The notes beneath the pieces are model-generated. The model was not told where the DNA came from and made no database searches. It saw only the letters and a program-made list of their open reading frames with translations. Source: an uncultured Bacteroidota bacterium (GTDB taxonomy: Bacteria > Bacteroidota > Ignavibacteria > UBA10030 > UBA6906). Taken from it: a stretch of 64,000 nt of DNA. The number at the start of each line of letters is the position of its first letter. Within the stretch, counting starts at the first letter, position 1. Of this stretch, positions 13,465 to 30,366 are shown one piece after another. Position numbers and translations under genes: made by a program. The stretch is taken from the NCBI GenBank assembly GCA_963700635.1, contig CAVOYH010000003.1:320001-384000 (forward strand), read 5' to 3'.

Positions 13465-13493
13465 TTGACAAAATCCGACCGGCGGTGTATGTT
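13465..13493 (+). promoter_or_regulatory. sigma70 promoter of the regulator/TonB-receptor operon
   Basis: TTGACA (13465-13470), 17-nt spacer, TATGTT (13488-13493). Confidence 0.7.
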
Positions 13494-13502
13494 ATGGTTG
13501 AC

Positions 13503-13523
13503 TAAAGTCATCAAATGACTTTA
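13503..13523. promoter_or_regulatory. Palindromic operator, probable GntR/FadR binding site
   Basis: Perfect inverted repeat TAAAGTCAT-CAA-ATGACTTTA just downstream of the -10 box, overlapped by a second palindrome TGACT-AA-AGTCA (13499-13510). Confidence 0.7.
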
Positions 13524-13543
13524 TCACATCACCTCCCACGTCC

Positions 13544-14091
13544 TTGAATACACGCCTGCACCGCACACGGTTGCCAGACCAGCTCGCGGAACGGCTGCAG
13601 CGGTTTATCGCCGACCGGAATCTCAAACCCGGCGAACGGGCCGACACGTGAGGTGCTGCTCGACCTTGTCGAAGCCCGCAAGGCTATCGAACTGGAGACC
13701 GCCGCCCTCGCGGCCGAGAGAATTACCCCCGAGCTGGCAGAAGAACTTGAGGACCTCCTGAACGAAGCGTCTTCTCACCTGGAGTATCCCGACGCCCTTA
13801 CTCCTATCAACATGCAGATTCACCTCTCGATCGCCTCTGCATCCGGCAACTCAGTACTCAGACATATTCTTGACGTTATCCTGGATCTGTTCCGGGAAGA
13901 GCAACGCCTGTTACTGGATATCCATGGTTTCCCACGGAGCGACTATGATGAACACAAGCACCTTGTGGAGGCAATTTGCCTTCATCACAGAACAGTGGCC
14001 ATCAGCCGTATGCGTAAGCACCTCGATGGTATACAGAAGCGTTGTCCTTGACTGGAACAGTACCAACGACCAGCAGGCGGAAAGACGCTGA
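13544..14091 (+). pseudogene. GntR/FadR-family repressor with an internal deletion of the HTH
   Basis: RTRLPDQLAERLQRFIADRNLKPGER (first wHTH helix) jumps out of frame at 13640 straight into the FCD domain (LLDLVEARKAIELETAALAAER..IHLSIASASGN..EHKHLVEAI..MRKHL). A probable extra base near 14034 would move the stop to 14091. Confidence 0.8.
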
Positions 14092-14092
14092 T

Positions 14093-17071
14093 ATGTCAAC
14101 ACCATTCTTTCACCGTACCATACTGTGCTGCATCATCGCAGCAACACTCTCCGGCGCGGCGTACGGCCAGTCGGGGAAGGTGAGCGGCATCCTCACGGAC
14201 CGTGAAACACGGGAACCTCTGGTTGGCGCGAACGTCACACTTCTCGGAACCACCCTCGGCGCTGCAACCGATGCCTCGGGCGAATACTTTATCCTGCGCG
14301 TGCCCCCGGGTGTGTACACCCTGCGCGCCGCGCTCCTGGGCTTCCATGAGGTCACTATCCGCAACGTCAGGGTAAGCATCGATCTAACCACCCGTATCGA
14401 TGTTTCTCTTGACGAGGAAAGCGTGGATATTGGGGAGGAGGTGGTCATCACCGCAGAACGGCGTGTGATTCAGAAAGACGCCACGTCCAGTACGCTCTAC
14501 GTTGATGCCGCAACCATCGCCGCACTCCCCGTTTCCGACGCTCGTGAGGCAGTACTCGTACAGAGTGGCGTCTTTTTTGATCCGATCCCCGTCATCGGAG
14601 GTCTGGGCGGATCAGGTCGCGGCGAAACACGGTATGCGGTCCGCGGGGGAACACAACAGGAAGTCAAGTGGTTCTACGATGGCGCCCGTACTACGGCACT
14701 CATTGAGGGACGCGCCGATCGCGGCGGATCGTATACCGGCGTCAATCTGGATGCCGTGCAGGAAATCCAGGTCCTCACCGGCGGCTTCAGCGCGGAATAT
14801 GGCGATGCACAGTCAGGCATCGTCAACGTCGTCACCAAAGAAGGCGGATCCCGCTATACTGCCTCGGCGGAATATGTGTACGGGTTCGCGGGCCAGCACC
14901 ACTTCGGGGCCAATCTGTTCGATCAGAACACGCAAAAAGAGTTCCGTGACCACCGACTGGCTGATGGTTCGCTCGATCCGGCCTGGTGGACGCCATACCG
15001 CCAGAAACAGATCTATGACTACACGTCAATCCCCGATCACACCGTGTACCTCAGTGTTGGTGGACCGATCTATCATGGCGAAGCCAGCAGCGCAGGTTTC
15101 TTCCTCTCCGGGGCCCTGAAGAAGGAGGCGTACACGTACCCCCACCCGCGGGACACCCGCAACAATGAGAATGTCATGGGAAACGTGACATACCAGCCCC
15201 GTCCGGATATGAAACTGCGCATCACCGGCCTCTATGCGCATGAGGCTCATTCTACGCTGCAGGAAAACGGTGACTTTACGATGCAATCGAAGTACTACCG
15301 GGGGTGGGGGTCTTTGCTTGACACGTACACCACCAGCGGAAGCGCTCAATTCACCCATACCCTCTCCCCATCGCTGTTTTATGAGGCAAAACTCAGCGCG
15401 TATTTCTTCGATAGCCACGAAACACCCAGCGAATATCTGGCGCTGGGAGAAAGCAAAAATCCGGACCTCTTCGGTTATCAACGGTACGACGGATACCAGA
15501 GTGAACCCTTCGACGCCTACTCTTACGTCCTGCGCAACCATCTGCAGAACGGAGATCTTTCGTTGACCGGAAGTGCCAGCTGGCAGGCTGATCAGTCCAA
15601 CCTGCTCAAGGCGGGATTTGAGTTCCGTTACAACACACTCGCCGAGAAGGAACTCAGCCGGTGGCCTTCTTTCACCACTGCCCCCTCCCTCTGGCTGAAT
15701 CGTGGATTAAACGAGACATTCCATCCCATCCAGTTCTCCGCCTATCTGCAGGACAAGATGGAATTCGAGAGTATGATCCTGAATCTCGGCCTGCGGTACG
15801 ACTATTTTGACCCGAACCGCGACTGGTTCTGGGGGAACAATCTGTACAATCTGAGTATCGATCCCGAGTATTCGGCGGCGAAGGATCCGGACCGCGACCA
15901 GGTGGATTCGCTGGGCCGCGTTAAGTATGCATATGAGAATGTGCTGAAAAAACCGCGGACCAAATCCCCAACATACCACCTGCTTAGTCCGCGCATCGGC
16001 GTGTCGTTCCCCATAACGGAAAACACCGTCCTTCGGTTCAATTACGGACATTTTTATCAGATGCCGCCCCTCGACTGGATGTACGAATTTAACTATTTCC
16101 GGCCGATCTATATCGTCAAGGGGATCCAGACCGAAATGTCACAACCCAGTCCAAGGCACATCGCTTCGGCAGACGGGGATCCGGAACGTGTAGTGATATT
16201 GACGAATCAACCGTTGGATCCGATGAAGACCGTGTCGTTTGAGGTTGGCATAAAACATAATTTCTCGGATTTTGTGGTGCTGGATGTGGTCGGTTTCTAC
16301 AAGGATGTTACGGACCAGACCTATCCGCGGCAAGGCATTTTTGACCGGCGTATCTACGGGTACGATCCATTCACCCGAATGACGACCGCCAACACGTTCT
16401 ATGGAAGTCTGATTCCCGGGGATTACGGTGATGCGCAGGGATTCGAGATCACACTCCGGTCCCTCTTCAGCCGGGTTCTGATGTTTGACATCAACTACAG
16501 TTTCTCGCGCTCGCTCCAGGGACGGGCCTCCCCGGCGAGGGTGAACTACGATTCGGCAGGCGTACCCACGTATGTGTACGATACCGATGTCAACAAACGG
16601 ATTCCCATCGAATCCCATTTTAGCAGACCACACATTGTCCGGACCAATCTGCTCCTCCGGTATCCCGAGGATGCGGGGGAGTCGTTCCTCAGCACAATTC
16701 TCCAGGATGCCAGCGCGAGTATCCTCTACCGGTTTACGAGCGGACAGACGTTCACTTATCTCGCTCCGGATGATCCGCCCGATACATACGACAATCAGCG
16801 ATATCCGGCATCACATACCGTGGATCTCCGGCTGGACAAGACGATTCATCTGGGCGGGAAACGTGCCCTCACGTTCTCGCTCCGTATCACCAACCTTCTG
16901 AACGCAAAAAATGTCCGTTCCATCGGGGATATTTTCTTTGATCCCAACGCCATCAAGAAATACGTCGAGACCGGTGAAGTCTCGACCGTTGATGGTGCTG
17001 GATACGACATTTCCTGGCAAACATGGTACGAAGCCCGCCGCTACTACCTGAGCGTGCGGTTCGAGCTCTAA
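14093..17071 (+). CDS. TonB-dependent receptor with N-terminal CarboxypepD_reg-like domain
   Basis: Signal peptide AYG|Q, GKVSGIL..EPLVGANV..GAATDASGEY, plug motif GGFSAEYGDAQSGIVNVVTKEG, barrel motifs LNLGLRYDYF and SPRIGVSFPIT. Confidence 0.95.
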   Translation: MSTPFFHRTILCCIIAATLSGAAYGQSGKVSGILTDRETREPLVGANVTLLGTTLGAATDASGEYFILRVPPGVYTLRAALLGFHEVTIRNVRVSIDLTTRIDVSLDEESVDIGEEVVITAERRVIQKDATSSTLYVDAATIAALPVSDAREAVLVQSGVFFDPIPVIGGLGGSGRGETRYAVRGGTQQEVKWFYDGARTTALIEGRADRGGSYTGVNLDAVQEIQVLTGGFSAEYGDAQSGIVNVVTKEGGSRYTASAEYVYGFAGQHHFGANLFDQNTQKEFRDHRLADGSLDPAWWTPYRQKQIYDYTSIPDHTVYLSVGGPIYHGEASSAGFFLSGALKKEAYTYPHPRDTRNNENVMGNVTYQPRPDMKLRITGLYAHEAHSTLQENGDFTMQSKYYRGWGSLLDTYTTSGSAQFTHTLSPSLFYEAKLSAYFFDSHETPSEYLALGESKNPDLFGYQRYDGYQSEPFDAYSYVLRNHLQNGDLSLTGSASWQADQSNLLKAGFEFRYNTLAEKELSRWPSFTTAPSLWLNRGLNETFHPIQFSAYLQDKMEFESMILNLGLRYDYFDPNRDWFWGNNLYNLSIDPEYSAAKDPDRDQVDSLGRVKYAYENVLKKPRTKSPTYHLLSPRIGVSFPITENTVLRFNYGHFYQMPPLDWMYEFNYFRPIYIVKGIQTEMSQPSPRHIASADGDPERVVILTNQPLDPMKTVSFEVGIKHNFSDFVVLDVVGFYKDVTDQTYPRQGIFDRRIYGYDPFTRMTTANTFYGSLIPGDYGDAQGFEITLRSLFSRVLMFDINYSFSRSLQGRASPARVNYDSAGVPTYVYDTDVNKRIPIESHFSRPHIVRTNLLLRYPEDAGESFLSTILQDASASILYRFTSGQTFTYLAPDDPPDTYDNQRYPASHTVDLRLDKTIHLGGKRALTFSLRITNLLNAKNVRSIGDIFFDPNAIKKYVETGEVSTVDGAGYDISWQTWYEARRYYLSVRFEL

Positions 17072-17082
17072 TGGAGAAGCAT

Positions 17083-18915
17083 ATGACTCTTTTCTCACAG
17101 AACCTTCTGCTGATAACGGCCGTCCTGGTATGCACCAGCGCTGTGCACGCACAGCTTCGTACACCCGAATATCGCATCCATGACCGCGGGGAAGTATGGG
17201 ACACCATGAAGGACAACGGCCTGATCGGCGCGCCGAATCCCACCAACCGTTTTGAATATTTTCCGAGCCTGGATTGGCCCGGCGGACCGCACACGCTTGT
17301 CAACAAAGATGAGCAACGGTCCTACAGCTACCAGGCAGGAATGTGGATCGGAGGGAAGAAGTCGGGAACCCAGATCTTCTTCACCGAGAACGGGCCATTT
17401 TCATATGTCGACAATGGGACGTTCTCTCCCATCCAGAAAAAGACCAACTTCATCGGAAGTCCGGCTTTTAACCCTGCCGAGGCTGAGGAAACGATCACGG
17501 CCGAGTGGACGACCACGGAGGGGATGCGCATAAAGCGGATAAGCAGGAGCTGGAGCCCTCCGGGTTACAATACGTTTATTCTCATTGAGTATCAGGTCAC
17601 CAATCAGACGCCGGCGCCGATGACCGATGTCTTTCTCGGCTTCCCGTACCTTCTGCGCCCCAGCTATCAGGATTTTGTGGTGCACAACGGATGGGGGGAT
17701 GATTTGAACCGGGCTGACGAGCTGGTCGGATACGACTCAACACTCCGGATGATCTATGCGTACGATGACACACCCAATTTTAGTCTCCCCTCGGACGTGG
17801 GCAATTACTGGTCGAATGCGGATGAACTCCGCACCACGGGGTATGCCGGAGTCGCGTTACTCTTCTCTGATCCGGCAACCGGGGGACGTGTGCAACCTGC
17901 CAACGTCCTCTTTGCGCAACTCCTGGGGAATGAGCGGAATTTCACGCTCACCAGCGTAACCCCTGCGAAGATGTATGATGTGCTCACCGGCGCCGACCGT
18001 TCACTCCAGGCGACGCCAGAACAGAGACTCTGTCCCTTTATGCTGATGTCCTGCGGACCCTATGCGCTGCCTGCGGGTGGAACCGTGAAGGTGGTGCTTG
18101 CCCAGGGTGTAAACGGTCTGCCGCTCAGTGATGCCGTACTCGGAATTGCCATGCAGCCCAACCTGCCTGCAGGCCTGGATTCGCTCAAAGCGACAATGAG
18201 CAGGGCGGGCCAGGTTCATACAAATAACTACCGACTTCCCGCTTTTCCCCCTCCCTCACCGGAGGCAGAGTATATCGCATTGCCCAGCTCCCGGTCCATT
18301 GCATTAACGTGGCCCCCGATCGAAGACGTACATACGAACACGGAAACAGGAGCGCGGAATTTCCAGGGATACCGGATCTACAGGAGCAGCAGGAGTTTTG
18401 TCGGACCGTACACGCTCCTCCGGACAATCAATGTGCGTTACTCCCTGGACCGGACAAGATTTATTGATGCAGCGCTCGGGAAGTGGCGGGTTCTGGATCA
18501 GACGATCGATCTCGGCGTCACGTATTTTTACACCGTCACGTCGTTCGATAGTCTTGGCAATGAAAGCGGATTCACAAACCGGAACGAGCGCGGCATCGCG
18601 GCCACAAGTCCGCCGGCCGCCAATGCTTCCGATGTCCGCGTATTTCCCAATCCCTTTCGTGAGGTGTCCGGATTTCCCACGAGGGGTGAGGAAAGCTCCA
18701 TCGTATGGACGAACCTTCCCGGCCTGGCCACGATCCGGATCTTTACCTCCAGCGGGGAGCTTGTGAAGACCATTAAACATGAGAACCAGACATCAGGGCA
18801 GGTGGTGTGGACTCAACTGTCCGATGCACGCCAACGTGTTGCCTCCGGTATCTATTTCTGGACGGTGGAGTCGCCCGTCGGAAGCTCCCGGGGCACTCTC
18901 CTGATCATCAAGTGA
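17083..18915 (+). CDS. Secreted non-catalytic-looking protein with Fn3-like domain and a variant T9SS CTD
   Basis: Signal peptide VHA|Q; FQGYRIYRS and YFYTVTSFD (Fn3-like); C-terminus VRVFPNPF..TNLPGLATIRIFTSSGELV..VASGIYFWTVE..GTLLIIK. Alternative start 17071. Confidence 0.85.
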   Translation: MTLFSQNLLLITAVLVCTSAVHAQLRTPEYRIHDRGEVWDTMKDNGLIGAPNPTNRFEYFPSLDWPGGPHTLVNKDEQRSYSYQAGMWIGGKKSGTQIFFTENGPFSYVDNGTFSPIQKKTNFIGSPAFNPAEAEETITAEWTTTEGMRIKRISRSWSPPGYNTFILIEYQVTNQTPAPMTDVFLGFPYLLRPSYQDFVVHNGWGDDLNRADELVGYDSTLRMIYAYDDTPNFSLPSDVGNYWSNADELRTTGYAGVALLFSDPATGGRVQPANVLFAQLLGNERNFTLTSVTPAKMYDVLTGADRSLQATPEQRLCPFMLMSCGPYALPAGGTVKVVLAQGVNGLPLSDAVLGIAMQPNLPAGLDSLKATMSRAGQVHTNNYRLPAFPPPSPEAEYIALPSSRSIALTWPPIEDVHTNTETGARNFQGYRIYRSSRSFVGPYTLLRTINVRYSLDRTRFIDAALGKWRVLDQTIDLGVTYFYTVTSFDSLGNESGFTNRNERGIAATSPPAANASDVRVFPNPFREVSGFPTRGEESSIVWTNLPGLATIRIFTSSGELVKTIKHENQTSGQVVWTQLSDARQRVASGIYFWTVESPVGSSRGTLLIIK

Positions 18916-18925
18916 AGGAAGTGTC

Positions 18926-19867
18926 ATGAAATCCCTTATGCTTATGCTGCTCCTGGGCATGTCCGGGTTGACTGCCATGGCACAATTTGATTATGGCTTT
19001 GATTTCTCAAAGGCCGGCACGGCAGGACTACAATCCCTCAAGATTCTTCCCGGCTCGCGTGATGCCGCGCTCGGTGGAGCGGTGGCGGCGCTCACCAACG
19101 ACGTCACATCCGTCTTCGTGAACCCGGCCGGACTGGCGTTTGTGGAGAGCCCCCAGGCATCGGCGTCCCACGTGTCATGGCTCGTCGGCAGCCGTATGGA
19201 TGCGGCGGTCGTTGCTGCTCCGCTGGGGGGATTCGTCCTGGCCGTTAGCGCCATACGCTTTGGCGTCGATGAGTTCGAAGAAACAACCGTCCGGCAGCCA
19301 ATGGGAACAGGGCGGATGGTGGCCGCCGGCGATGTGGTCATCGGACTCGCGGCAAGCCGCCGTTTTTCGGATAAATTGACCATCGGACTCCAGTTCAAAT
19401 ATGTGCGTGAAACCCTGGACCATGACGTTGTGTCAAATGTCCTGTTTGATGTCGGAACCATCTATTATACCGGCTTTCATAATCTGCGTCTGGGCTTTGC
19501 GGTTCAGCATTTCGGGCCCGACATGAAGGTCCTCGACCAGAAATTCCGCTCACCTCTTCTTTTCAGGGTCGGCGCCGGCGAAGATATCGCGCTCGCGGAA
19601 GATCACCACCTTACTGCGGGAGTGGACCTGGTCCATCCAACAGACAATAATGAGTGGGTGAATCTCGGTCTGGAATATGATATGTTAAAACTGGTCAGCC
19701 TCCGCGCAGGATACAGAATCAACGTGGAACGGGGAAAGTTCAGCATGGGGGCGGGGGTTCATCCTCCGGCCGTGGCAGGCATATCCCTCAGCGTCGACTA
19801 TGCCTACACGCACTTTGATGCCACCATGGAACCAATCCAGCAATTTTCTCTACTTGTTTCATTCTGA
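18926..19867 (+). CDS. PorV/PorQ-family outer-membrane beta-barrel
   Basis: KAGTAGLQSLKILPGSRDAALGGA..VFVNPAGLA, FDVGTIYYTG, LRAGY, VDYAY and a C-terminal Phe. Confidence 0.9.
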   Translation: MKSLMLMLLLGMSGLTAMAQFDYGFDFSKAGTAGLQSLKILPGSRDAALGGAVAALTNDVTSVFVNPAGLAFVESPQASASHVSWLVGSRMDAAVVAAPLGGFVLAVSAIRFGVDEFEETTVRQPMGTGRMVAAGDVVIGLAASRRFSDKLTIGLQFKYVRETLDHDVVSNVLFDVGTIYYTGFHNLRLGFAVQHFGPDMKVLDQKFRSPLLFRVGAGEDIALAEDHHLTAGVDLVHPTDNNEWVNLGLEYDMLKLVSLRAGYRINVERGKFSMGAGVHPPAVAGISLSVDYAYTHFDATMEPIQQFSLLVSF

Positions 19868-19868
19868 T

Positions 19869-22757
19869 ATGACCATAGCAAAGATTTTTCATCATGTTCT
19901 GGCCAGCGTGGGGTTTGCCCTCCTGCTTTTTTCGGCGGGGACTTCCCCCGCGTATGCGCAGTTCGACAGACCCTGGCGGATCTATCTGGTTCCCTTTTCT
20001 CACACTGACGTCGGGTACACTGCTCCGGTAGATGTGGTGCTGCAAAACCACCTGGCCTACCTCGATACCGCCGTAGCGTGGGTAGGCCGCACACGCAGCA
20101 ATCCGGCCAATGAACAGTTTCGATGGACGATTGAGATTCCCTGGGTGCTGGATGCGTACATCCGCCAGCGCAGTGCGGCGCAGGTCGAGGAGCTTATGAC
20201 CTGCGTGCGGAGTGGCGAGATCGAAATCGGAGGGATGTATTTTGGCCTTCAAACCGATCTTTGCGGCAACGAAGAACTCGTCCGCTCACTGATGTTTTCT
20301 CAGGAACTGCGGAATAGTTACCAGGTCCCGGTGCGAACGGCCTTTATCAATGACACGCCGGGGCTCACCTGGTCTCTGGCTCAGATCTTTCCGCGGGCGG
20401 GAATACCCTACCTCTCCCTCGCCATGAATTCCTTTCTCTCGGATTTTTACACGACCACCTCCCTGCCGAATCTTTTCCGGCTTCAGGCACCGGGCGGTGA
20501 ACGGCTTCTGGTATGGAGATCCATCGATCCCCAGTGGGCATACCTGGAAGGCACCGTGACGTGCAGGATCTATGCCAGCGGACCGGCGGTCATGCAGACC
20601 GGGCTTACAAGTTTTCTTCAGGGACTGGCTGCGGCGGGATATCCGTACAACGAGGTAATGATCAACTGTGCCACCGGAGACAACGGCGCCCCGAACTTCT
20701 ACATCGTCAACAACGCGCGCGAATGGAACAGCATCTATCCCGATGCAAAGATTCTTATCAGCACAGCGACGGCATTCTTTGACACGATGGAAGCGCGCCA
20801 CGGGGCGACCATTCCGGTTGTCAGCGGTGATGCGCCCAACTACTGGACCTGGTTGTTTGCACCCTCCGCAACCAGGGAGAATGCGCTATCCCGGAAAGCA
20901 CACAGGCTCCTGCCTGCCGCCGAGACGTTTGCCACACTTGCCGCGCAACTGGATCCGGGATTCATCAACTCTCCCGGTTCTTTCCGTGATGCCTATATCA
21001 ACAACCTGACGTTCGAAGATCACAATCTTGGCGCTGTCTATTCCGGTGGCAACGAGCCTTTCTGGGTCCTGAAAAAAGGATGGATCACGGCCGCCGTGGA
21101 CACCGGCACGGCAATTCTCGCGAGGGCGACTGACGCCTTCGCCCGGAGTATCTCAACCGGAGCTCACAGGACAATCGTGGTCTTTAACCCTCTCATCTGG
21201 CCACGCTCGATTCCCGTTACTTTGCCCCCGGAACAGGTTCAGGCCCTGGGATTCTGCGACATACAGGATGCGCTGACGGGCCAGCTGCGGCCCGTGCAGA
21301 TGCTTCACGACGGTTCGGTCTGTTTTGTAGCCCCTGAAGTTCCGCCCGTCGGGTATGCACTGTACACGATACTTCCCCGGCCGGGCTCATGGCCACTTCC
21401 CATGAGTCCCGGAATGCTGACTCTCGAAAATGATCACTACCGGCTGCGGCTCGACGCATCCACCGGCGGAGCACTTTCGGTGGTGGACAAAGCCTCGGGA
21501 ACAGACCTGGCCACGGGAACAGGTCGCTTTAATCAGTACCGGTACAATTCCAGCCAGACTGGCACCGCGTTTTCGGTCGCAGACACTGACAGCGGCCCGG
21601 TGCTTCAGCGCGTCACTCTTCAGGGTTCGGCGCCCGGTTCAAACGTACTCTGGACCACGGCAGTGCTCTATCATGAACTGAAACGAATTGACTTTCTGAA
21701 TCGATATGACAAACTGGCTCCTACACTCACCGAGACTGTGGATTTCGACTATCATTTCGCTCTCTCCTCGGCGAAACTTCGGTATGACATCCCCTTCGCC
21801 GATGTCCGTTTGTTTGATGACGAACTCAGCGGATTTCGGCCGAAACATTACGCGGCGGGCCAATGGTGCGCCGTGATTTCGGGCGCCAACACGATCGCCG
21901 GAGTCCTTGCACTCGAAAACGCCTCGGTTACGGCTCACCCGGGCGGGACGTTTGACGGGAGCCTGCGGTTGATGATCTCGTTTAACAACTCAGGGTCCGC
22001 ATACAGGGCCGGAACCGGTCTGCTTTCCATGAACTACTCATTGACGACCACTGCCGGTTTTGCCGTGGATTCTTCCATGAGACACGCCTACTCGGCATTC
22101 GCTCCTGCCCCGTTCCGCATTCTCCCTGCGGGACAGACAGGTGCGCTGCCGAATCGACATACATCATTCCTGCAGATTTCGCCGGCATCAATTTTTCTTT
22201 CGACCGTAAAGACTCCCCTCTCCGGCAATGGGATAATCGTGCGGCTGTTTAATCCATCTCCCCAACCTGTTTCTGTCACGCTCCGAAGTTACGGGAAGAT
22301 CCGCTCGGCGTTTGAAACATCTCTCCTTGAAGACGGTGGAATACCGCTGCCGTTTTCATCGGACACTGTTTTCATTTCTTTCGGACCCTACGAGATCAAA
22401 ACATTACATATCGATGCCGATCTCATCACGAGCGTCGAACCGTTCACGCCGGTCCCGGAAGCGTTCTCCCTTGAACAAAACTACCCGAATCCGTTCAACG
22501 GGCAGACAAGAATCGGTTTTTCGATCGGCCGGAATCCGGCTTCCGGAATCCATAAAAGTAACACTCCGGAAACACGCGTCGTTGTGAGTGTTTTCGACAT
22601 TCTGGGACGGAAGATCGCCGATCTTGTCGATGCCCCGTTTTCTCCCGGCCAGCATCACGTACTGTTTGATGCATCGGGACTTTCATCCGGCGTGTACCTG
22701 TATCAGATCCGAACCGGAGGATTTTCATCCACCAGGAAAATGGTACTTATCCGATAA
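19869..22757 (+). CDS. GH38-like (alpha-mannosidase family) enzyme with T9SS CTD
   Basis: FSHTDVGYT, FRWTIE, NDTPG, GDNG, EDH; signal peptide; CTD NYPNPFN..LSSGVYLY..RKMVLIR. Confidence 0.85.
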   Translation: MTIAKIFHHVLASVGFALLLFSAGTSPAYAQFDRPWRIYLVPFSHTDVGYTAPVDVVLQNHLAYLDTAVAWVGRTRSNPANEQFRWTIEIPWVLDAYIRQRSAAQVEELMTCVRSGEIEIGGMYFGLQTDLCGNEELVRSLMFSQELRNSYQVPVRTAFINDTPGLTWSLAQIFPRAGIPYLSLAMNSFLSDFYTTTSLPNLFRLQAPGGERLLVWRSIDPQWAYLEGTVTCRIYASGPAVMQTGLTSFLQGLAAAGYPYNEVMINCATGDNGAPNFYIVNNAREWNSIYPDAKILISTATAFFDTMEARHGATIPVVSGDAPNYWTWLFAPSATRENALSRKAHRLLPAAETFATLAAQLDPGFINSPGSFRDAYINNLTFEDHNLGAVYSGGNEPFWVLKKGWITAAVDTGTAILARATDAFARSISTGAHRTIVVFNPLIWPRSIPVTLPPEQVQALGFCDIQDALTGQLRPVQMLHDGSVCFVAPEVPPVGYALYTILPRPGSWPLPMSPGMLTLENDHYRLRLDASTGGALSVVDKASGTDLATGTGRFNQYRYNSSQTGTAFSVADTDSGPVLQRVTLQGSAPGSNVLWTTAVLYHELKRIDFLNRYDKLAPTLTETVDFDYHFALSSAKLRYDIPFADVRLFDDELSGFRPKHYAAGQWCAVISGANTIAGVLALENASVTAHPGGTFDGSLRLMISFNNSGSAYRAGTGLLSMNYSLTTTAGFAVDSSMRHAYSAFAPAPFRILPAGQTGALPNRHTSFLQISPASIFLSTVKTPLSGNGIIVRLFNPSPQPVSVTLRSYGKIRSAFETSLLEDGGIPLPFSSDTVFISFGPYEIKTLHIDADLITSVEPFTPVPEAFSLEQNYPNPFNGQTRIGFSIGRNPASGIHKSNTPETRVVVSVFDILGRKIADLVDAPFSPGQHHVLFDASGLSSGVYLYQIRTGGFSSTRKMVLIR

Positions 22758-22761
22758 GGCC

Positions 22762-24097
22762 GTGGCAAAACGACTTCTCATATGGTTTCTCTTTGTGCTC
22801 GGCGTTGCGGCCCTGGGACTTCTGTTCGTGCTCGATAGTGGCGGCCCTGCGGCCTCGTCGGACGGGCGTGTCCATCTGCGTTACTGGACGATCATCGGCA
22901 TGAAGGAGATCATCCCATATTTTGCAACGTCCTTCGGAACCGTCCAGAACCGGATTATTGTTGATACCACGCCGATACCGTGGCAGGAGCATGAGAAGAA
23001 AATACTCACGTCCATCGTGAGCGGGAACCCTCCCGACGTGGTGAATCAGATGACTCCGGTGCCCAAGTGGGCGGCGCGGCTTGCTCTGGTTCCTCTCGAC
23101 GAGTACATCCGGCGGGATCAGTTTGACAGCACGATGTTCTTTCCCTCCCTGTGGGAGGAGATGCGGTACCGGGGCAGGATTTACGGTGTACCGGTCTATT
23201 CGGGATCATATGCGCTGTTTTACAACAAGACCCTGTTCCGCCAGGCCGGCCTCGATCCTGATCGTCCGCCGCGGACTTGGGAGGAAGTATTTGCGCTGAA
23301 CAGCCGTTTCGTCAGCCGGAATACGCGCGGACAAATCCTCACGATGGGCTTCATCCCGAACTACGGGAATATTCAGGTGTTCATGTTGATGGCATGGCAG
23401 CGGGGGGCGCAGTTCCTGAGTGCGGATGGTGCCCGGGTACAGGTGGCTGATTCCGCCGTTGTGAGCGCCCTTGCTTGGGTCCGGCGTTTTTATGCCGAAT
23501 ACCCCCAGCAGGATGTGGCTGCCTTTCTGGGGGGGCTGGGTTTTGCTGACCAGCATGGATTTATCGCGGGCAAAGTCGCCATGATGATCCTCGACAGCAG
23601 CTTCCCCGATCAGATCCGCGCGTACAAACCCTCTCTGGACTACGGCGTGGCCATGATCCCCACGTTCCCCGGATCCCCTACTGCGTCCATTTCGGGAAGC
23701 TGGTGGCTGGGCATACCGCGGGGCGCAGCGCATCCGGACGAAGCATGGGAGTTCATCAAACATGCCGTCACCAAAAGAATCCCAGCTCCTTGAAATTGAG
23801 AAGACCGAAGAGAGCCTGTTCCCAGCCAACCGGTATGCCGCCGAAGATCCACGATTTATGAACACGCCGGCACGGAACATATTCGTTCGGATGATGGATC
23901 ACTCCCATTCACCCTCCGTTGTTCCGCTCGCACATGATGTGTTCTGGCGTGAAATCACCGGCGCCCAGGAGCGGGTGATCCATGGTCTCCAGACACCGGC
24001 ACTTGCCCTGGAACAGGCGCAGAAACAGATCCAGTCCATACTGGATGAAGCGCGGGACTACGACAGTTATGTCTATACGCATACGGAAACCCGGTAG
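22762..24097 (+). CDS. Carbohydrate ABC transporter substrate-binding protein, split by a 1-nt insertion at ~23773-23776
   Basis: SGNPPDV, LVPLDEYI, IYGVP, LFYNKTLF..AGLD, PRTWEE, FIAGKVAM. Continues as KESQLLE.. in the next frame after a 4-A run. N-terminal TM anchor. Confidence 0.9.
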
Positions 24098-25021
24098 ATG
24101 AAGTTCTCCGATTCACCCTGGATGAAGACGAAACGCAGAAGACGTGAAGCACTGCTGGGCTTCCTCTTCGCAGCACCGTGGATCGGTGGATTCCTGGTAT
24201 TCGGACTGTACCCGATGGTCATGTCGTTGTATTTCAGCCTTTGCAGGTATGACGTGTTGCGCATGCCCCAGTATATCGGATTGGACAACTACACCACGAT
24301 GCTGATGGGCGATCCGTATTTCTGGACAGCAGTGGGAAACACCCTTTACTACGCATTCGTGCGTACACCTCTCTGCATTGCCGGTTCCCTGTTCCTTGCT
24401 GTGCTGATCAACAAAGCCACATGGGGTGCGCGGGTCTACCGGACGGCGTACTTTCTCCCTTCCATCATCTCGGGCGTCGTCGTCTCTGTACTCTGGCTGT
24501 GGCTGTTAAATCCGCAGTACGGGCTCATCAACTCGGGCCTGCAGTTTGTCGGAATCGAGGGACCTCTCTGGCTGCAGAGCCCGGAATGGTCAAAACCATC
24601 CCTGGTGCTCATGAGTCTCTGGTCCGTCGGAGGCGGCCGCATGATCGTTTTCCTGGCCGCCCTCCAGAGTGTTCCTCCTCATCTTTACGAGGTGGTGGAA
24701 CTGGACGGCGGAGGAGGCTGGCAGAAATTCCGTCATGTGACTCTCCCGATGATATCGCCCGTCCTGTTTTTATGGGTCGTCCTTGAGATTATCTTCTCTC
24801 TCCAGGTGTTCACCGAGGCCTATGTTATGACCAAGGGCGGACCGCTAAACTCCACCCTCTTCTACAATTTGTATCTGTACTACAAGGCATTTGATGATTT
24901 TGATATGGGATATGCTTCCGCCCTTGCATGGCTGCTCCTATTGTTTTCGGTCGTTGTCACGTATTTTCAGTTCAAGCTCGGGAAACGATGGGTGTACTAT
25001 GAAGCCGACCCGAGGGGTTAG
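24098..25021 (+). CDS. Carbohydrate ABC transporter permease
   Basis: FAAPWIGGF, GLDNY, EAA-like motif LQSVPPHLYEVVELDG, MGYASALAW. Confidence 0.95.
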   Translation: MKFSDSPWMKTKRRRREALLGFLFAAPWIGGFLVFGLYPMVMSLYFSLCRYDVLRMPQYIGLDNYTTMLMGDPYFWTAVGNTLYYAFVRTPLCIAGSLFLAVLINKATWGARVYRTAYFLPSIISGVVVSVLWLWLLNPQYGLINSGLQFVGIEGPLWLQSPEWSKPSLVLMSLWSVGGGRMIVFLAALQSVPPHLYEVVELDGGGGWQKFRHVTLPMISPVLFLWVVLEIIFSLQVFTEAYVMTKGGPLNSTLFYNLYLYYKAFDDFDMGYASALAWLLLLFSVVVTYFQFKLGKRWVYYEADPRG

Positions 25022-25024
25022 GAC

Positions 25025-25861
25025 ATGAAACAACAACGAAGCCTCTGGAACAGGCTTGGCCTGTACGGAGTGCTTACGATCTTCGGGATGGTATTCCTGA
25101 TTCCGTTCGTCTGGGTGGTCTCCACGTCCCTGAAGGGAAACGAACAGATCTTCACGATCCCGCCCGAGTGGATTCCGACCCGGATCCGGTGGGAGAACTA
25201 CGTGGAAGTGTTTCGCCGGATGCCGGTCCTGCTCTATCTGAAGAACTCCGTCATTATCACGGTGTTCCAGATGATCGGAATCGTCGCTTCAAGTTCACTG
25301 GTTGCCTATGCATTTGCCATCCTCCGCTGGCCGGGCCGGAATATCCTCTTCGGGGTTCTCCTGGCAACGATGATGTTACCCATGCAGGTGACGATGATTC
25401 CCATTTTCGTGCTCTTCAAACAATTTGGCTGGCTGGACACGTTCAAGCCGCTCATTGTCCCGGCGTTTCTGGGCGGTGGCGCGTTTAACATATTCCTGCT
25501 GCGGCAGTTCTATCTCGGGATACCCAGTGATATTGTCGATGCCGCACGCATCGACGGATGCTCAGAATTCCGGATCTACTGGAACATTATGCTCCCGCTG
25601 GCGAAGCCGGCTCTGGCAACCATCGCCATTCTGACATTTATGTTCTCCTGGAATGATTTTCTTGGACCATTGATCTATCTGTCCGAAAAGAGCAAGAGTA
25701 CCCTGGCTCTCGGTTTGGCGATGTTCGTGGGGCAACAAACAAGCGAATGGGCGCTCCTCATGGCTGCGTCGATTCTGATGATGATCCCCATGATCGTGAT
25801 TTTCTTCTTCTTCCAGAAGTATATTATCCAGGGATTCACTATGAGCGGAATCAAAGGATGA
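25025..25861 (+). CDS. Carbohydrate ABC transporter permease
   Basis: EAA motif IPSDIVDAARIDGCS, WNDFLGPLIYL, FFQKYII.G. Confidence 0.95.
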   Translation: MKQQRSLWNRLGLYGVLTIFGMVFLIPFVWVVSTSLKGNEQIFTIPPEWIPTRIRWENYVEVFRRMPVLLYLKNSVIITVFQMIGIVASSSLVAYAFAILRWPGRNILFGVLLATMMLPMQVTMIPIFVLFKQFGWLDTFKPLIVPAFLGGGAFNIFLLRQFYLGIPSDIVDAARIDGCSEFRIYWNIMLPLAKPALATIAILTFMFSWNDFLGPLIYLSEKSKSTLALGLAMFVGQQTSEWALLMAASILMMIPMIVIFFFFQKYIIQGFTMSGIKG

Positions 25862-28800
25862 AACCTCTTCTTCTGATCCTGTTGATCTCAGGATCGTTTC
25901 TCCACGCACAGGAGCGTGAAGACCGTCATATGGTCCGGACGCCCCTGCAGCCGGACGGAAACATCTCCGCCTGGCTTGTTGCGGGCCCGTACGAACAGGG
26001 TATCGAAGGATTCGGTTCATGGCGTTCGCTCGATGCGATAGGCGAAGCCACAATCCGCCCGCGCACCGGGATGTCACTTGCGGCTCCGCTCATCGCCGGG
26101 GGAAAGACCTCCTGGCAGCCGCAGTCAATCGATGCGCACGGTTATCTCGACCTCAACGCCTGCCTTGGCTGGGCAATCCCGGGACAAACGCCGGAAAAAG
26201 TTTGGTGGACAAAAGCCGGGTATGCGTACGCCGCCCTGGAATCACCTGTGGCTCAGGACCTGCGCCTGCTTGCAGGAACAAACTCGCAGCTTGTCGTCTT
26301 TCTTAACGGCGTTCAGATGTACGAGTTCACCGGGCACCGCGATGCCAGACCCGACCAGGACACCGTGACGTTGCCGCTTGTTGCGGGCGTGAATCACCTG
26401 CTGTTGAAGATCGGGAATTCGTTCAAAAATCATCGTTCACCGTTCTTTGGAGGGATCACATTCGGGTGGGGTGGCTTTTTCAGAATCGTACGTTCCGATG
26501 GTCAACCCGCACGTGATTTGTCGCTGGTGTTTGAAGATCTGCCCGTTCAGTCAACCATGCGGCTCCACCCCACGATCTTTTTCCGCAGGGAGGGCACACA
26601 GCTCATGCAGCGCCATGATCTGGAGATCTTTTCCACCGCGGTGGACTCTTCGAACGGCTCGCTCACCGTCACGGGAAAAGGCCGGAACGAACAACGGAAG
26701 GTGCGCCCGATACAGTGGGGGTGGAATCGTATTCCACTCTGGTTCGCGGCTGCCGATGAGTCCGTCCCCGTGACATGCCAACTCGACTTTGCCGGACAAC
26801 ACGTCACGGTGGCCGATACCCTGCACGCTGAACGCCACTATGAACTCCACCTGATTTTCCTCACACACACCGACATAGGATACACACACCCCCAGCCCGT
26901 TGTGCAGGAGTTACATTGCACGGCTCTGGACCAGGTACTCGCGCTGTGCAGAAAACACCCGGATTTCCGATGGACGATAGAGACGGTGTATCAACTTGAG
27001 CAATTCCAGCAATCACGCGCGCCGGCCGTTCTTGAGGAATTGTACCGGTACATGAGGGAGGGACGGATCGCTCTCTCTCCGATTTCCACAAATCCCTACA
27101 CCGGCTGGGTGAGTGAAGAAGAAATGATCCGGTCGATGATGCCCGGTGAAGAGATCCGCAACCAACTGGGGATTACGACCCCGGGTGCCATGTATAATGA
27201 CGTCCCCGGACTTGCGTGGATGATCCCGCGCGTATTTCATGATGCCGGGGTAAAACTGCTTGTCTGCGGCCTCAATGAAGTATATGGCGGGTACACTCTC
27301 CAGAAATCACTGCCGAAGGCCTTTCTCTGGCAAGGAGCGGATGGCACCCGGCTTCCCGTGTACCGCACGGAAACCTACACCGAGGGAACCGATTATGGTC
27401 TGGAGCGGGAACTTCCGGTTATCGCTCACCGGATGTGGGAACGGCTGCACAGATTACGGTCTCTCGGTGAGGACCGGACGATGGTCCTGTTAAATTCTGC
27501 GTGGTTCGACAACGGCCCACCCGCGGAGCATCAGTTCGAAGCAGCCAAAAAATGGAACGCAGAGTATGCATATCCCCGTTTTGTCATCACTACACTTGCC
27601 GACGCTGCAACTGCATTTCTCCGGAAGTATGAGACCTCTCTGCCGGTTTTGCGCGGAGACTGGACATCTTCATGGGACATGCTCTTTCAGGGAGAACCTG
27701 AGCGTGTGATATCCCAGCGGTCAACCCAGCAGCAACTCATTGAAGCGGAAGCACTGGATGCGGTGACCACTACACTCCGTCCGGATATCCTTCCGGCGAC
27801 ACGTGCTGCAGACCGAGCATACGCCTCCCTGCTCGAATACAGCGGCCACGGGAGTGGATTGGAAGCAGGCCTGGGTACACCGGGCGAAAACTCCCTGACG
27901 ATGGGGATCCGGGAGCACTACCTGCGGAACGCCGCAACAACCGCCACAACCATATACTCCAGAGCGATCACCAGAATTGTTCGCGCTGAAGAGGCTTTTG
28001 AAGCCGAAGGACTGATACTCATCAACCCTCTCACCTGGCACTGCACCGTGCCGGTGGAGGTTGAACTCAAAGACTCGTCAGACCGGCAATTCCGGCTGAC
28101 GGATCTGGTGACAGGCCGAACGGTCCCGTCCTTTAGAAAAGGTTACCGCTTATCCTTCGTCGCACCCGATCTGCCTCCGTTGGGCTTCAAGAAATTCGAG
28201 ATGGCTGCCGGATCCAAAGGTGTTTCCCTTTCCGGCACCTCAGACCTCTTCATGACGGAGGCGTCAATCGAGAATGGCAGATATCGAATCGGTGTTGATC
28301 GTGTGACGGGCCAGATCACATCGATCGTTGATAAGCAACAGCAGCGTGAACTTGTCAGGTCGGGAGGGATCCCCTTTGGCGGGCCCGTTATCCAGCGGGG
28401 ATTCGAGGATCAGAAATTCGAGCCGGTTCGCGCCACCGGTGTTACGGTGGCACTGGCCGACGAACGGCCCGTACGCCTGGTCCTTTCCCTCCTCCGGCCA
28501 GGTGAAGTTGTCGAAAAGACCGAGTATATTCTCTGGTCGGGTGTGGACCGCGTCGATATCGCCCATACCGTCCATCTTGATGCCCTGCGGCCACCCCGGG
28601 AAGTAGAAGTCTTTGCGGCAGGATTTCCTCTTTCTTTTGGCGGAACGGCCACCCCCTACATGGACATCCTGGGAGGATTTCTTCATGCACCGGCCGACCG
28701 ATTGGCCGGGGCGCTGACGGATGTGTATTCCATCCGCCGGGCAGTCGCGTTGAGCGACGGTCGGACCTCTGTTTCTTTCGCAGCAGCGGACAGCCGTATC

Positions 28801-29307
28801 GTATTCTGGAGAACCGATTCGCTCTCCGGCTCGTCAACACTCCTTGCAAATCTGGTGACCAACTTCCCGGTTGAATGGAACCGGAACGAAGCCAACTCCG
28901 GGCGCCTGCGACTCCGCTTCGCCCTGAACAGCCACGATGGCCCATTCAATCCGGACAGAACAACACGCCTCGGCTGGGAAGTGCAGACCGATTTTTTCAG
29001 CCGTGCCACACTGATCCGGAGAGTCCCGGCACAACAGAGTTATCTTTCGGTCACCGGCACCAGCGCGGTGCTCTCCGGGCTGAAGCGGGGCTCCTCGCCC
29101 GGCGAGACCGTCCTGCGTGTGACCAATGTGGACCCCGTCAACACGACCAGGGCAACAATTGCTTCGTCGGTCTTCCTGCCGGGGCGTATTATCCAGGCCA
29201 CCATGTTCGAACATCCCGGGAAGACACTCACTATCGCAGATTCGACGGTGACAATCGATCTGGGCCCTTCGGAAACGAAGACGTTGTTGATACGAAAGAA
29301 TCCGTGA
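25858..29307 (+). CDS. GH38-like enzyme, periplasmic, with N-terminal accessory beta domains
   Basis: Signal peptide LHA|Q, LTHTDIGYT, FRWTIE, NDVPG, FDNG, RGDWT. No CTD. ATGA overlap with the permease. Confidence 0.82.
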   Translation: MKPLLLILLISGSFLHAQEREDRHMVRTPLQPDGNISAWLVAGPYEQGIEGFGSWRSLDAIGEATIRPRTGMSLAAPLIAGGKTSWQPQSIDAHGYLDLNACLGWAIPGQTPEKVWWTKAGYAYAALESPVAQDLRLLAGTNSQLVVFLNGVQMYEFTGHRDARPDQDTVTLPLVAGVNHLLLKIGNSFKNHRSPFFGGITFGWGGFFRIVRSDGQPARDLSLVFEDLPVQSTMRLHPTIFFRREGTQLMQRHDLEIFSTAVDSSNGSLTVTGKGRNEQRKVRPIQWGWNRIPLWFAAADESVPVTCQLDFAGQHVTVADTLHAERHYELHLIFLTHTDIGYTHPQPVVQELHCTALDQVLALCRKHPDFRWTIETVYQLEQFQQSRAPAVLEELYRYMREGRIALSPISTNPYTGWVSEEEMIRSMMPGEEIRNQLGITTPGAMYNDVPGLAWMIPRVFHDAGVKLLVCGLNEVYGGYTLQKSLPKAFLWQGADGTRLPVYRTETYTEGTDYGLERELPVIAHRMWERLHRLRSLGEDRTMVLLNSAWFDNGPPAEHQFEAAKKWNAEYAYPRFVITTLADAATAFLRKYETSLPVLRGDWTSSWDMLFQGEPERVISQRSTQQQLIEAEALDAVTTTLRPDILPATRAADRAYASLLEYSGHGSGLEAGLGTPGENSLTMGIREHYLRNAATTATTIYSRAITRIVRAEEAFEAEGLILINPLTWHCTVPVEVELKDSSDRQFRLTDLVTGRTVPSFRKGYRLSFVAPDLPPLGFKKFEMAAGSKGVSLSGTSDLFMTEASIENGRYRIGVDRVTGQITSIVDKQQQRELVRSGGIPFGGPVIQRGFEDQKFEPVRATGVTVALADERPVRLVLSLLRPGEVVEKTEYILWSGVDRVDIAHTVHLDALRPPREVEVFAAGFPLSFGGTATPYMDILGGFLHAPADRLAGALTDVYSIRRAVALSDGRTSVSFAAADSRIVFWRTDSLSGSSTLLANLVTNFPVEWNRNEANSGRLRLRFALNSHDGPFNPDRTTRLGWEVQTDFFSRATLIRRVPAQQSYLSVTGTSAVLSGLKRGSSPGETVLRVTNVDPVNTTRATIASSVFLPGRIIQATMFEHPGKTLTIADSTVTIDLGPSETKTLLIRKNP

Positions 29308-29429
29308 CACAGAAAGTTGAGTCCGTACTAAAAGAGAAAGGAAACTATGCACGATTCCGGTATTCGTGAGTATTCATACGATTCCAGCGTTTCACCCAAC
29401 ATCCATTCACTTAACAGAGGAGTCATTCC

Positions 29430-30272
29430 ATGAATTGGAAACGACTTACTACAACGTTGGTGATTCTTGTGCTGCCCCTGCTCCTTACACACTGTCTGAT
29501 CACCGGGGTGCAGCAGCCGGCTGCGGCAACCGCCAACAGCAACATAACCACGATCGTCACAATCACCGATGACATTGTCCCGGAGAGTAACCCCCATAAG
29601 GGCGTCTTGTGTGTGCTGGTGCCGACGGACTGGAGTTTTGTCTCCGGAACGTATTCGGCGACACTGGACAATGGTTCAGCGCTCGGGAACGGCACCATAG
29701 TGCTGGCGGCGAACTGGGCGGACTCTGCTGCGACGGTTGTCCCTCCACCCGCCGGTTACAAGTGGATCGGGCTCCTTTCCAGTGCCGGATATACCTACTC
29801 GGACACCATTTTTGCTGAAGCCTCCGTCACCCTCAAGGTTGGAACGAAGAACGGTGTGTACAACATTGGTTATCTTACCACCAAGAACACAGGCGATCTT
29901 CTTTCTCACCTCGGACCTCCGGACTTCTGGGCTGACACCGCAATGAACTTCAAGATTACAGTGACCGGTGGAACCTCCGTGGAGGAACGTTCCCTCGGAC
30001 GGATTCCCGATTCGTACGGACTTTCCCAGAACTTCCCGAATCCTTTTAATCCGTCAACAGCGATCCGCTTTGCGCTGAAGGAGCGTTCGACCGTCCGGTT
30101 GTCCGTCTTTGATGTCACCGGCCGGGAAATCGAGACGCTCGTCGACGGTGTCCGCGACGCAGGAGAGTACGAAATTACCTTCTCACCGGAGAACCTTTCG
30201 AGCGGTATCTATCTGTACCGTTTGAGGACGGGTGATTTTGTCAGGACAATGAAGATGGTATACACACGATAA
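29430..30272 (+). CDS. Small secreted protein with T9SS CTD
   Basis: GAGGAG RBS, hydrophobic signal, CTD LSQNFPNPFNPSTAI..LSSGIYLYRL..KMVYTR. Confidence 0.88.
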   Translation: MNWKRLTTTLVILVLPLLLTHCLITGVQQPAAATANSNITTIVTITDDIVPESNPHKGVLCVLVPTDWSFVSGTYSATLDNGSALGNGTIVLAANWADSAATVVPPPAGYKWIGLLSSAGYTYSDTIFAEASVTLKVGTKNGVYNIGYLTTKNTGDLLSHLGPPDFWADTAMNFKITVTGGTSVEERSLGRIPDSYGLSQNFPNPFNPSTAIRFALKERSTVRLSVFDVTGREIETLVDGVRDAGEYEITFSPENLSSGIYLYRLRTGDFVRTMKMVYTR

Positions 30273-30288
30273 GAACACCGTATGAATG

Positions 30289-30339
30289 CCGGCGGGGGTT
30301 GTGTGCCGCGGAATGTTCCCGCAACCAACCCTCGCCCGG
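30289..30339 (+). terminator. Long GC-rich intergenic stem-loop (partial terminator or mRNA stabiliser)
   Basis: CCGGCGGGGGTTG pairs with CAACCCTCGCCCGG around an inner hairpin. No clear U tract. Confidence 0.4.
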
Positions 30340-30366
30340 TACTCTGCGCTCTCCCCGGGAAACCCC

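Follow-up and report, generated by a model that had tools for sequence, protein, structure and literature searches.

A conserved triad of TonB-dependent receptor, type IX secretion-type surface protein and PorV/PorQ-family barrel as a candidate glycan-uptake unit in a Bacteroidota genome without SusD

Here we describe a gene triad from a 64,000-nucleotide (nt) stretch of DNA, referred to below as the window, from an uncultured Bacteroidota bacterium of the class Ignavibacteria (assembly GCA_963700635.1, contig CAVOYH010000003.1, positions 320,001 to 384,000). On the forward strand, at window positions 14093-19867, a gene for a TonB-dependent receptor (TBDR) is followed by one for a 610-amino-acid (aa) secreted protein, which we call mid, and by one for a small outer-membrane barrel of the PorV/PorQ family. 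The order of the three genes was kept in all testable loci among 80 orthologous ones from several phyla, the genome was found to carry 14 paralogous cassettes, and the C-terminal domain (CTD) of mid was predicted to dock on the barrel. The triad is apparently a widespread and undescribed means by which bacteria without SusD equip a nutrient transporter with a partner at the surface. The full chain that we propose runs from the export of mid by a type IX secretion system (T9SS), through docking on its own barrel, to service for the TBDR in mannoside uptake, and as a whole it is one towards which we lean slightly.

The three genes are separated by intergenic gaps of only 11 nt and 10 nt, and the likely start of a glycoside hydrolase family 38 (GH38) gene, at 19869, lies 1 nt past the stop of the barrel gene. 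Upstream, an 850-nt gap separates the triad from two genes encoding a GxGYxYP-family protein and a URO-D-like protein. A preliminary description of the window, made from its letters, had placed three tightly coupled genes at the head of a glycan operon and had noted the lack of a SusD-like lipoprotein. Both statements held: the distances are as given above, a Pfam search of the operon proteins, mid included, returned no SusD-type gene, and a search of the entire genome (4.2 Mb, 97% complete, contamination estimate 6.7%) for the SusD families PF07980 and PF14322 gave 0 matches.

The receptor gene (14093..17071, about 992 aa) lies in an open reading frame (ORF) that opens at 14042, with a Met at 14093 directly before the signal peptide. 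Pfam searches identified a CarboxypepD_reg domain (PF13620/PF13715), a plug (PF07715, 41.4 bits, cut-off 23.9), a barrel (PF00593, 87.3 bits, cut-off 27) and PF25183. With plug and barrel both over their gathering scores, the protein is a TonB-dependent receptor, and its barrel is of the 22-strand type. On the SusC/RagA model TIGR04056 it scored 57.4 bits against a cut-off of 368.25, over model positions 2-263 only, which leaves it outside that family. When the 29 TBDR-like ORFs of at least 500 aa in the genome were placed in a tree, all 14 TBDRs of the triad cassettes and one other formed a single clade of 15 (SH-like support 99). Only one TBDR of this clade, at C4:706064-708577, has no adjoining mid or barrel, and its neighbors look like housekeeping genes.

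The gene for mid (17083..18915, forward strand) specifies a product that is present in the database at exactly this length of 610 aa, and the orthologues begin at the same residue. Residues 1-23 form an SPI signal peptide that ends in a conserved A|Q. Because no Cys is conserved at the end of the signal peptide, as a lipobox would require, mid is not a lipoprotein and needs another means of being retained at the cell. No Pfam family was matched above threshold, the only sub-threshold match being FlgD_ig at the tail (16.4 bits, cut-off 27); no enzyme family of Pfam or NCBIfam was matched, and a sequence comparison of the mid family with PDB chains returned nothing at an E value of 0.01 or below. 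Orthologues with 55-60% identity across phyla are annotated as "hypothetical" or "T9SS type A sorting domain-containing", and the closest atlas clusters are unnamed or "hypothetical". The family is nevertheless large: when a mid profile was compared with 1.84 billion cluster representatives, 7,244 of them proved to be related at E ≤ 0.001, 1,813 at E ≤ 1e-10 and 129 at E ≤ 1e-30.

An AlphaFold2 model of mid, built with 60 aligned sequences, reached a pLDDT of 89.8 and a pTM of 0.85. It shows a signal peptide, a head (residues 24-385; window positions 17152..18237), a long helix, an FN3 domain (residues 396-490) and a tail (residues 519-608); on the DNA, the helix and FN3 module (residues 386-515) occupies 18238..18627, and the CTD (residues 516-610) occupies 18628..18912. 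Comparison of the predicted structure with solved structures identified the fold of the head as a galactose-mutarotase-like beta-supersandwich. Its best match was the N-domain of glucodextranase (1ulv_A, Z 19.6, root-mean-square deviation 3.0 Å over 235 residues; Foldseek E 1e-8), and further matches at Z 15-19 were the non-catalytic N-domains of GH15, GH94 (cellobiose phosphorylase), GH65 and GH116 enzymes. The catalytic (alpha/alpha)6 domain of these enzymes has no counterpart in the mid model. On the strength of the model, the head is presumed to be of the non-catalytic sugar-domain type and to be the ligand-binding part of the protein; its alignment contains many invariant polar and aromatic residues (His, Asp, Arg, Tyr, Trp).

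A hidden Markov model (HMM) of the helix and FN3 module matched 11 other triad mids of the genome (E 6.5e-12 to 0.023), followed only by two unrelated ORFs at E > 0.03. The head of the window's mid is common to only three small mids of the genome. Since the stalk is so widely common and the head is not, the mids look like a family in which a common stalk and anchor bear exchangeable heads. Two further candidate elements of mid were rejected. A free N-terminal docking peptide had seemed possible from a 28-sequence model, in which conserved residues 17-85 were left at a pLDDT of about 30, and was dropped when, with 60 sequences, this segment folded into the head at a pLDDT above 90. An N-terminal module common to all mids, apparent by eye, was likewise dismissed, as an HMM of residues 24-120 matched only the window's own protein.

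We then turned to the tail of mid (VFPNPF ... NLP..ATIRIFT ... GIYFW ... GTLLIIK), which is the predicted barrel-docking element. Among NCBIfam models, the last ~90 residues matched the CTD of the PorZ model best (E 1.3e-8), followed by that of PorU (E 3e-5). On TIGR04183, the model for type-A CTDs, they scored 20 bits, short of its cut-off of 23, and PF18962 (cut-off 27 bits) was not reported for mid at E 0.01 or below. The window contains exactly four other CTD-bearing ORFs (5706-6590 on the reverse strand, 6700-8013, 19800-22757 and 29430-30272), all with N[YFS]PNPFN-type motifs. These scored 90-111 bits on an HMM built from the type-A CTDs of the genome, and mid scored 47 bits (E 6e-13). 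When CTD profiles were iterated over the genome, a type-A start and a mid-tail start converged on 139 and 140 ORFs, respectively. Because either starting profile arrives at about the same 140 ORFs, the mid tail is a diverged branch of the type-A CTD superfamily, and no separate class like type B. The preliminary description had called this CTD a variant unlike those of the four other cargo proteins; the difference and the status as a distinct type were upheld, with the correction that the variant branches from type A.

The distinct type was apparent in a tree of 141 T9SS-type tails of the genome, in which the 13 labelled mids and the mid of the 14th cassette formed one clade of exactly 14 members (SH-like support 90). 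In this genome the triad-type CTD is thus confined to proteins encoded beside such barrels. In addition, the top five matches of the genome to the CTD region of the PorZ model were all mids. We also compared the conservation of mid and of the adjacent GH38 enzyme part by part over the same 19 loci. The tail was the best-conserved part of mid (identity 0.73, with 0.61 for the head and 0.51 for the helix and FN3 module), whereas the ordinary type-A CTD of the GH38 enzyme was less conserved (0.34) than the enzyme body (0.49). Because the tail is the best-conserved part of the one protein and the least conserved part of the other, the tail of mid would seem to be no disposable tag, and to be kept permanently.

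The barrel (18926..19867, 313 aa, forward strand) has an SPI signal peptide and scored 175.2 bits on the PorV/PorQ family model NF033709 (cut-off 90), over all 326 model positions (1-326); a search of the whole genome likewise gave 175 bits at this position. It stayed below the cut-offs of PorV proper (NF033710, 55.8 bits, cut-off 250), PorQ proper (NF033711, 68.1 bits, cut-off 220) and PorP/SprF (TIGR03519, 15.7 bits, cut-off 90.55). Its only solved relative is Flavobacterium johnsoniae PorV (6h3i_F, E 6.5e-10, and also 8gl6 and following entries). Nor is it the housekeeping PorV of the genome: the family has 18 matches over the cut-off, and the best of them lies beside PorU on another contig.

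Docking of the CTD on this barrel, as foreseen in the preliminary description, was also predicted by co-folding. Residues 385-610 of mid and the mature barrel (residues 21-313), with alignments of 28 and 30 orthologues, were folded together in three runs alongside three controls. The ipSAE score was 0.93 in all three runs, and the best of the three controls reached 0.00; for comparison, 58 of 80 solved complexes and 2 of 110 mismatched pairs attained that mark. The runs share at least 98% of their contacts, with a pLDDT of at least 89 for the partner. The predicted interface spans mid residues 519-610, and its lowest-error contacts lie between the VFPNPF motif of the tail and the EETT loop of the barrel, both of them invariant. 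On the side of the barrel, the interface is enriched in conserved positions (Fisher p 0.017). We take the barrel to be the dedicated partner of mid.

To follow the triad beyond this genome, one genome per species was scanned, which gave 80 loci with mid orthologues at 43-94% identity. Under a strict positional rule, the TBDR gene lay upstream of mid in 76 of 77 testable loci and the barrel gene downstream in 73 of 76. Of the four misses, three have a barrel ORF with too early a start by the longest-ORF rule, and in the fourth mid is cut by the end of the contig, with the TBDR gene directly before it. The conserved order that had been expected is therefore found in every testable locus. By NCBI label, the 80 loci belong to Ignavibacteriota (28), Bacteroidota (20), Rhodothermota (12), Fidelibacterota (4), Calditrichota (3), Bacillota (1) and Lentisphaerota (1), and 11 are unlabelled. 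In 53 of the 80, the retrieved flanking sequence contained a GH38 homologue.

Within the phylum itself the distribution is patchy. A full-length orthologue was found in 5 of 301 sampled genomes, the window's genome included, and the count rises to 21 of 301 at E 1e-30 or below when partial matches to stalk and tail are included. All three triad proteins are 45-60% identical between genomes labelled as different phyla. Such identity across phyla, despite presence in only 5 of 301 genomes of its own phylum, suggests that the whole locus moves horizontally.

Inspection of the genome's PorV-family genes revealed how often the arrangement recurs. Fourteen barrel genes lie directly downstream of a TBDR gene homologous to that of the window, defining 14 paralogous cassettes. 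In 13 of these a mid gene stands between the two, and in the 14th the TBDR gene abuts the barrel gene, with a mid-type protein encoded 4 kb upstream. In this variant cassette, at C3:404626-414926 and ~20 kb past the end of the window, the triad-tail protein stands behind a type-A CTD protein of 750 aa and an ORF of 606 aa; the nearest paralogues of its tail and TBDR are both from the C3:32k cassette, and that of its barrel is from the C3:163k cassette. Of the six other PorV-family ORFs, one is the housekeeping PorV, which adjoins PorU on contig C2, two lie in tandem on C5 and three stand alone. The tandem pair at C5:195123-198587 follows a 518-aa protein with a CTD-like end and is accompanied by no TBDR, and is a different barrel-cargo arrangement. 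In a barrel tree, the 14 triad barrels fell on one side of a branch and the other six on the other side, with weak support (69). Judged from the three trees, each part of the triad is a dedicated subfamily.

The distances between cassettes were strongly correlated for every pair of parts, with a Mantel r of 0.94 for TBDR and barrel, 0.90 for TBDR and tail, and 0.89 for barrel and tail; for each pair, 0 of 5000 permutations gave a value as high. These tests covered 13 cassettes, the C4 cassette being left out because of its broken frames. The correlations point to cassettes that have been inherited and duplicated as units, and say nothing on protein contact. Among the cassettes there are two pairs of near-identical recent duplicates (C6:160k and C3:1651k; C3:1885k and C4:60k). 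Four cassettes contain TBDR and/or mid frames that are split into two ORFs or end abnormally (C3:138215-144624, C3:1651013-1658642, C3:1795705-1802344 and C4:60512-67536), and may be pseudogenes or assembly errors. The distinctive features of the window's locus are its small mid of 610 aa, the well-modelled sugar-domain head, the tight GH38-tied orthologous lineage and the clear contrast in tail conservation.

The genome encodes a T9SS, with matches to PorU (973 bits), PorZ (330 bits) and SprA (802 bits). The core cluster lies on contig C2 (139462-161861), with SprA at C2:155385-161861. PorU is directly followed by the best PorV-family gene of the genome (312 bits on NF033709), after which come the gene of a 1075-aa protein whose end resembles a CTD and an ORF of 1068 aa that looks like a barrel. 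SprA also exceeded its cut-off in five of five triad-bearing genomes tested, including those labelled Neomarinimicrobiota, Zhuqueibacterota, Calditrichia and Lentisphaeria. Among five other triad carriers searched for SusD, three had no match, a Calditrichia genome had 1 and a Rhodothermales genome had 2.

Based on these findings, we propose that the three genes would encode one outer-membrane glycan-uptake unit. Since the operon contains three GH38 genes and a GH38 homologue flanks 53 of the 80 orthologous loci, the substrate at this locus would most likely be alpha-mannoside-containing oligosaccharides. All three proteins bear signal peptides in their sequences and would cross the inner membrane by Sec, after which the TBDR and the small barrel would insert into the outer membrane and the T9SS would carry mid across it by means of the diverged type-A CTD. 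The tail would then stay uncut by PorU and remain docked at the cell exterior on the barrel encoded beside it, like PorZ on PorQ; here the docking is predicted, and its permanence is suggested by the conservation of the tail. Anchored in this way, the helix and FN3 stalk would place the sugar-domain head beside the TBDR, and the head may capture glycan freed by the secreted GH38 enzyme and pass it to the TBDR, a step to which only gene linkage and co-divergence point. The ABC (ATP-binding cassette) system and the further GH38 enzymes of the operon would complete the processing. The 14 units with different heads, together with the absence of SusD, look like this genome's general answer to the task that falls to SusC/SusD in Bacteroidia. 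The interpretation given in the preliminary description is, as a whole, partly supported.

Several observations weigh against this proposal. The step between TBDR and mid draws on synteny and co-divergence, which would argue for a shared function and are no proof of a complex. The docking score may reflect the likeness of the pair to solved PorV complexes (6h3i, 8gl*) rather than its own binding, the interface residues of the tail are no more conserved than the rest of the tail (Fisher p 0.84), and co-folding cannot separate permanent docking from transient shuttling. In the CTD tree, the genome's own PorZ and PorU tails fall outside the mid clade. The Mantel signal is owed in large part to a few recent duplicate pairs, and several of the 14 cassettes have a split reading frame for the TBDR or for mid. 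SusD co-occurs with the triad in some genomes, so that the unit is an alternative to SusD and not always its replacement. Lastly, the many invariant polar residues of the head would be as much in place in an enzyme as in a binding site. It is along these lines that other explanations have to be weighed. If the barrel were a dedicated secretion helper or shuttle and no permanent anchor, the tail would be removed and mid would be released or linked to lipopolysaccharide, to act as a free or lipopolysaccharide-bound glycan binder without a fixed TBDR complex. The predicted docking fits such a transient complex equally well, PorU is encoded in the genome, and a T9SS review describes PorV as a carrier of cargo and PorP/SprF as PorV-like barrels for specific substrates. 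We regard a shuttle as unlikely all the same: the tail is the most conserved part of mid (0.73), while the disposable tail of the GH38 enzyme is at 0.34 (body 0.49), the genes are matched one to one across the 14 paralogous loci and the 80 orthologous ones, and tail, barrel and TBDR co-diverge.

The residues of the head lead to a further explanation, in which mid has an enzymatic activity, such as a glycan-modifying or epimerase-like one of the galactose-mutarotase fold, and is displayed or secreted beside the transporter, being no binding lid. As far as anchoring goes, this overlaps with our proposal. The head is 55-60% identical across phyla and rich in invariant residues (His, Asp, Arg, Tyr and Trp), which would be in line with it, as would structural matches to galactose mutarotase-like proteins (3mwx_A, Z 13.7; 3os7_A, Z 13.2). 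However, the structures that score highest (Z 15-19.6) are non-catalytic N-domains of GH15, GH94, GH65 and GH116 enzymes whose (alpha/alpha)6 domain mid lacks, no enzyme family model recognizes the protein, and the heads vary widely among the 14 mids while stalk and tail are common, which fits a family of binding modules; an enzymatic mid is, in our view, quite improbable. Still another function could be sought in the receptor. The TonB-dependent transporter Oar has been reported to be necessary for secretion of the protease PopC in Myxococcus (PMC6434023), and the TBDR of the triad might by analogy export mid rather than import a nutrient, with the barrel holding the exported protein. That the TBDR is not of the SusC family (57 bits, cut-off 368) and bears PF25183 together with a CarboxypepD_reg domain would be compatible with this idea. 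It is opposed by the place of the mid tail within the T9SS CTD superfamily, by the SprA translocon in all five triad genomes tested, and by operon glycosidases and an ABC importer that indicate uptake, and we consider it highly unlikely. Finally, gene order by itself does not prove a complex, and the three genes might be merely co-regulated neighbors with separate functions and form no unit. An order kept in every testable case among the 80 loci of several phyla, 14 paralogous copies, a dedicated and co-diverging subfamily for each part, and the predicted docking of tail and barrel leave this explanation with hardly any credence.

By function, the system closest to the proposed uptake unit is SusC/SusD (RagA/RagB), although the triad TBDR remains below the SusC cut-off and mid matches no SusD family. 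In both systems, a locus with glycoside hydrolases opens with the gene of a TonB-dependent transporter (TBDT) next to that of a partner exposed at the surface, such pairs recur within the genome with different specificities, and the N-terminal CarboxypepD_reg-type domain of the triad TBDR matches the first part of the SusC model. A review gives SusD a pedal-bin role. Unlike the SusD partner, a tetratricopeptide-repeat lipoprotein, mid has an all-beta head, an SPI signal peptide and a T9SS-type tail, and the triad requires an obligatory third gene, that of the barrel.

With respect to anchoring, the nearest parallels are PorZ on PorQ and PorU on PorV in Porphyromonas gingivalis, whose tails are reported to be retained and which are held at the surface by a barrel of the PorV/PorQ family (PMC10202324); a 2023 review suggests that cognate PorV-like barrels shield tails from cleavage. 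The mid tail scores best on the PorZ CTD, and the triad barrel scores higher on PorQ (68 bits) than on PorV (56 bits). In contrast to these pairs, the triad barrel is below the equivalog cut-offs in a genome that has separate PorU, PorV and PorZ, and the triad pair is coupled to a TBDR and glycan-degrading genes instead of secretion machinery and occurs 14 times rather than once per genome. Type-B CTD cargoes with PorP/SprF (e.g., Flavobacterium SprB-SprF) are likewise described as being encoded beside a PorV-like barrel reserved for the one cargo; the triad differs in that its barrel is of the PorV/PorQ family, the mid tail is a type-A branch and a TBDR is always linked. BtuB-BtuG and DdbC-DdbD are TBDTs with surface partners of non-SusD fold encoded next to them (PMC10404256; 10.1101/2025.03.18.642099). 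BtuG and DdbD are annotated or predicted lipoproteins, and the consulted parts of these sources mention no barrel gene, including for the ddbABCDEF locus, which is described as a TBDT with a DUF5689 protein (10.1101/2025.03.18.642099); mid, by comparison, would be anchored by a T9SS-type tail in a barrel. In BamG-BamH of the Bacteroidota barrel-assembly machine (BAM), a 14-stranded FadL/PorV-like barrel binds an extracellular protein via its outer loops (PMC12578637). Compared by description only, this pair differs from the triad in being part of that machine and in having a partner that is no T9SS cargo.

In the main texts of open-access papers, we found no description of a unit of TBDR, CTD protein and PorV-like barrel, and a 2026 review of bacterial glycoside transporters contains 0 occurrences of PorV, type IX, T9SS or Ignavibacteri. 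The novelty would lie in a transporter with a surface partner that is anchored in a new way. A broader version of our proposal is that FCB bacteria outside the classical Bacteroidia build three-part "utilisomes", each consisting of a TBDT and a T9SS-delivered capture protein that a PorV/PorQ-like barrel holds permanently via an uncleaved CTD, and for this we see the arguments as evenly balanced. Under this broader proposal, the triad would be a second, lipoprotein-independent solution to the SusC/SusD problem, the T9SS would have a structural role in nutrient import, and about half of the genome's TonB receptors (14 of 29) would work in this manner.

The susC/susD tandem is what currently serves to recognise polysaccharide utilisation loci, according to a review, and a SusD-free genome with 14 transporter cassettes in glycan loci escapes such recognition. 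The triad provides a simple genomic marker for the utilisation loci of Ignavibacteriota, Rhodothermota, Calditrichota, Fidelibacterota and their relatives, and if it is a true complex of transporter, partner and anchor, it would explain how these bacteria capture glycans. The roles of the T9SS and of the PorV/PorQ barrel family would then widen from secretion to the permanent assembly of uptake machinery. The mid family, moreover, is large and lacks annotation. Because an orthologous triad occurs in a metagenome-assembled genome labelled Melioribacter roseus (locus L068), the idea may be testable in cultured species.

The remaining genes around the triad are in keeping with a glycan locus. The GH38 alpha-mannosidase that follows the barrel (19869..22757, ORF 19800-22757, forward strand) is a secreted or surface enzyme with an ordinary type-A CTD (PF01074, PF17677, PF18962; TIGR04183 34.7 bits). 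Next on the same strand comes an ABC sugar importer (22588..25861), made up of a solute-binding protein (ORF 22588-23793, PF01547/PF13416; its true start probably lies downstream of 22757) and a pair of permeases (24098-25021 and 25025-25861, PF00528 twice). A family search of the window proteins placed the further operon genes within 25747..35327, also on the forward strand. The first encodes a 1186-aa GH38 enzyme and is followed by genes for a DUF4961 protein with a type-A CTD (29430-30272), also recognized by the CTD profile, a 712-aa protein (30286-32424) that lies inside the mannosidase operon and matches no Pfam family at E 1e-4 or below, and a 968-aa GH38 enzyme (32421-35327). An esterase and a ROK kinase are also encoded in the operon. 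A scan of 13000-23900 for promoters and terminators gave counts not above those of shuffled sequence, and a look-up of sequencing runs, RNA included, returned none. Just 5' of the triad lie genes for a GxGYxYP-family putative glycoside hydrolase (9976-12180, forward strand) and a GH97 enzyme (8000-10117, reverse strand), and because these sit directly upstream, the glycan locus reaches to both sides of the triad. Further along, on the reverse strand at 46504-54727, two neighboring genes encode sensor histidine kinases of about 1,350-1,390 aa with Reg_prop (two-component regulator propeller) repeats, PAS domains and HisKA_2, which are possible glycan sensors for the neighboring loci.

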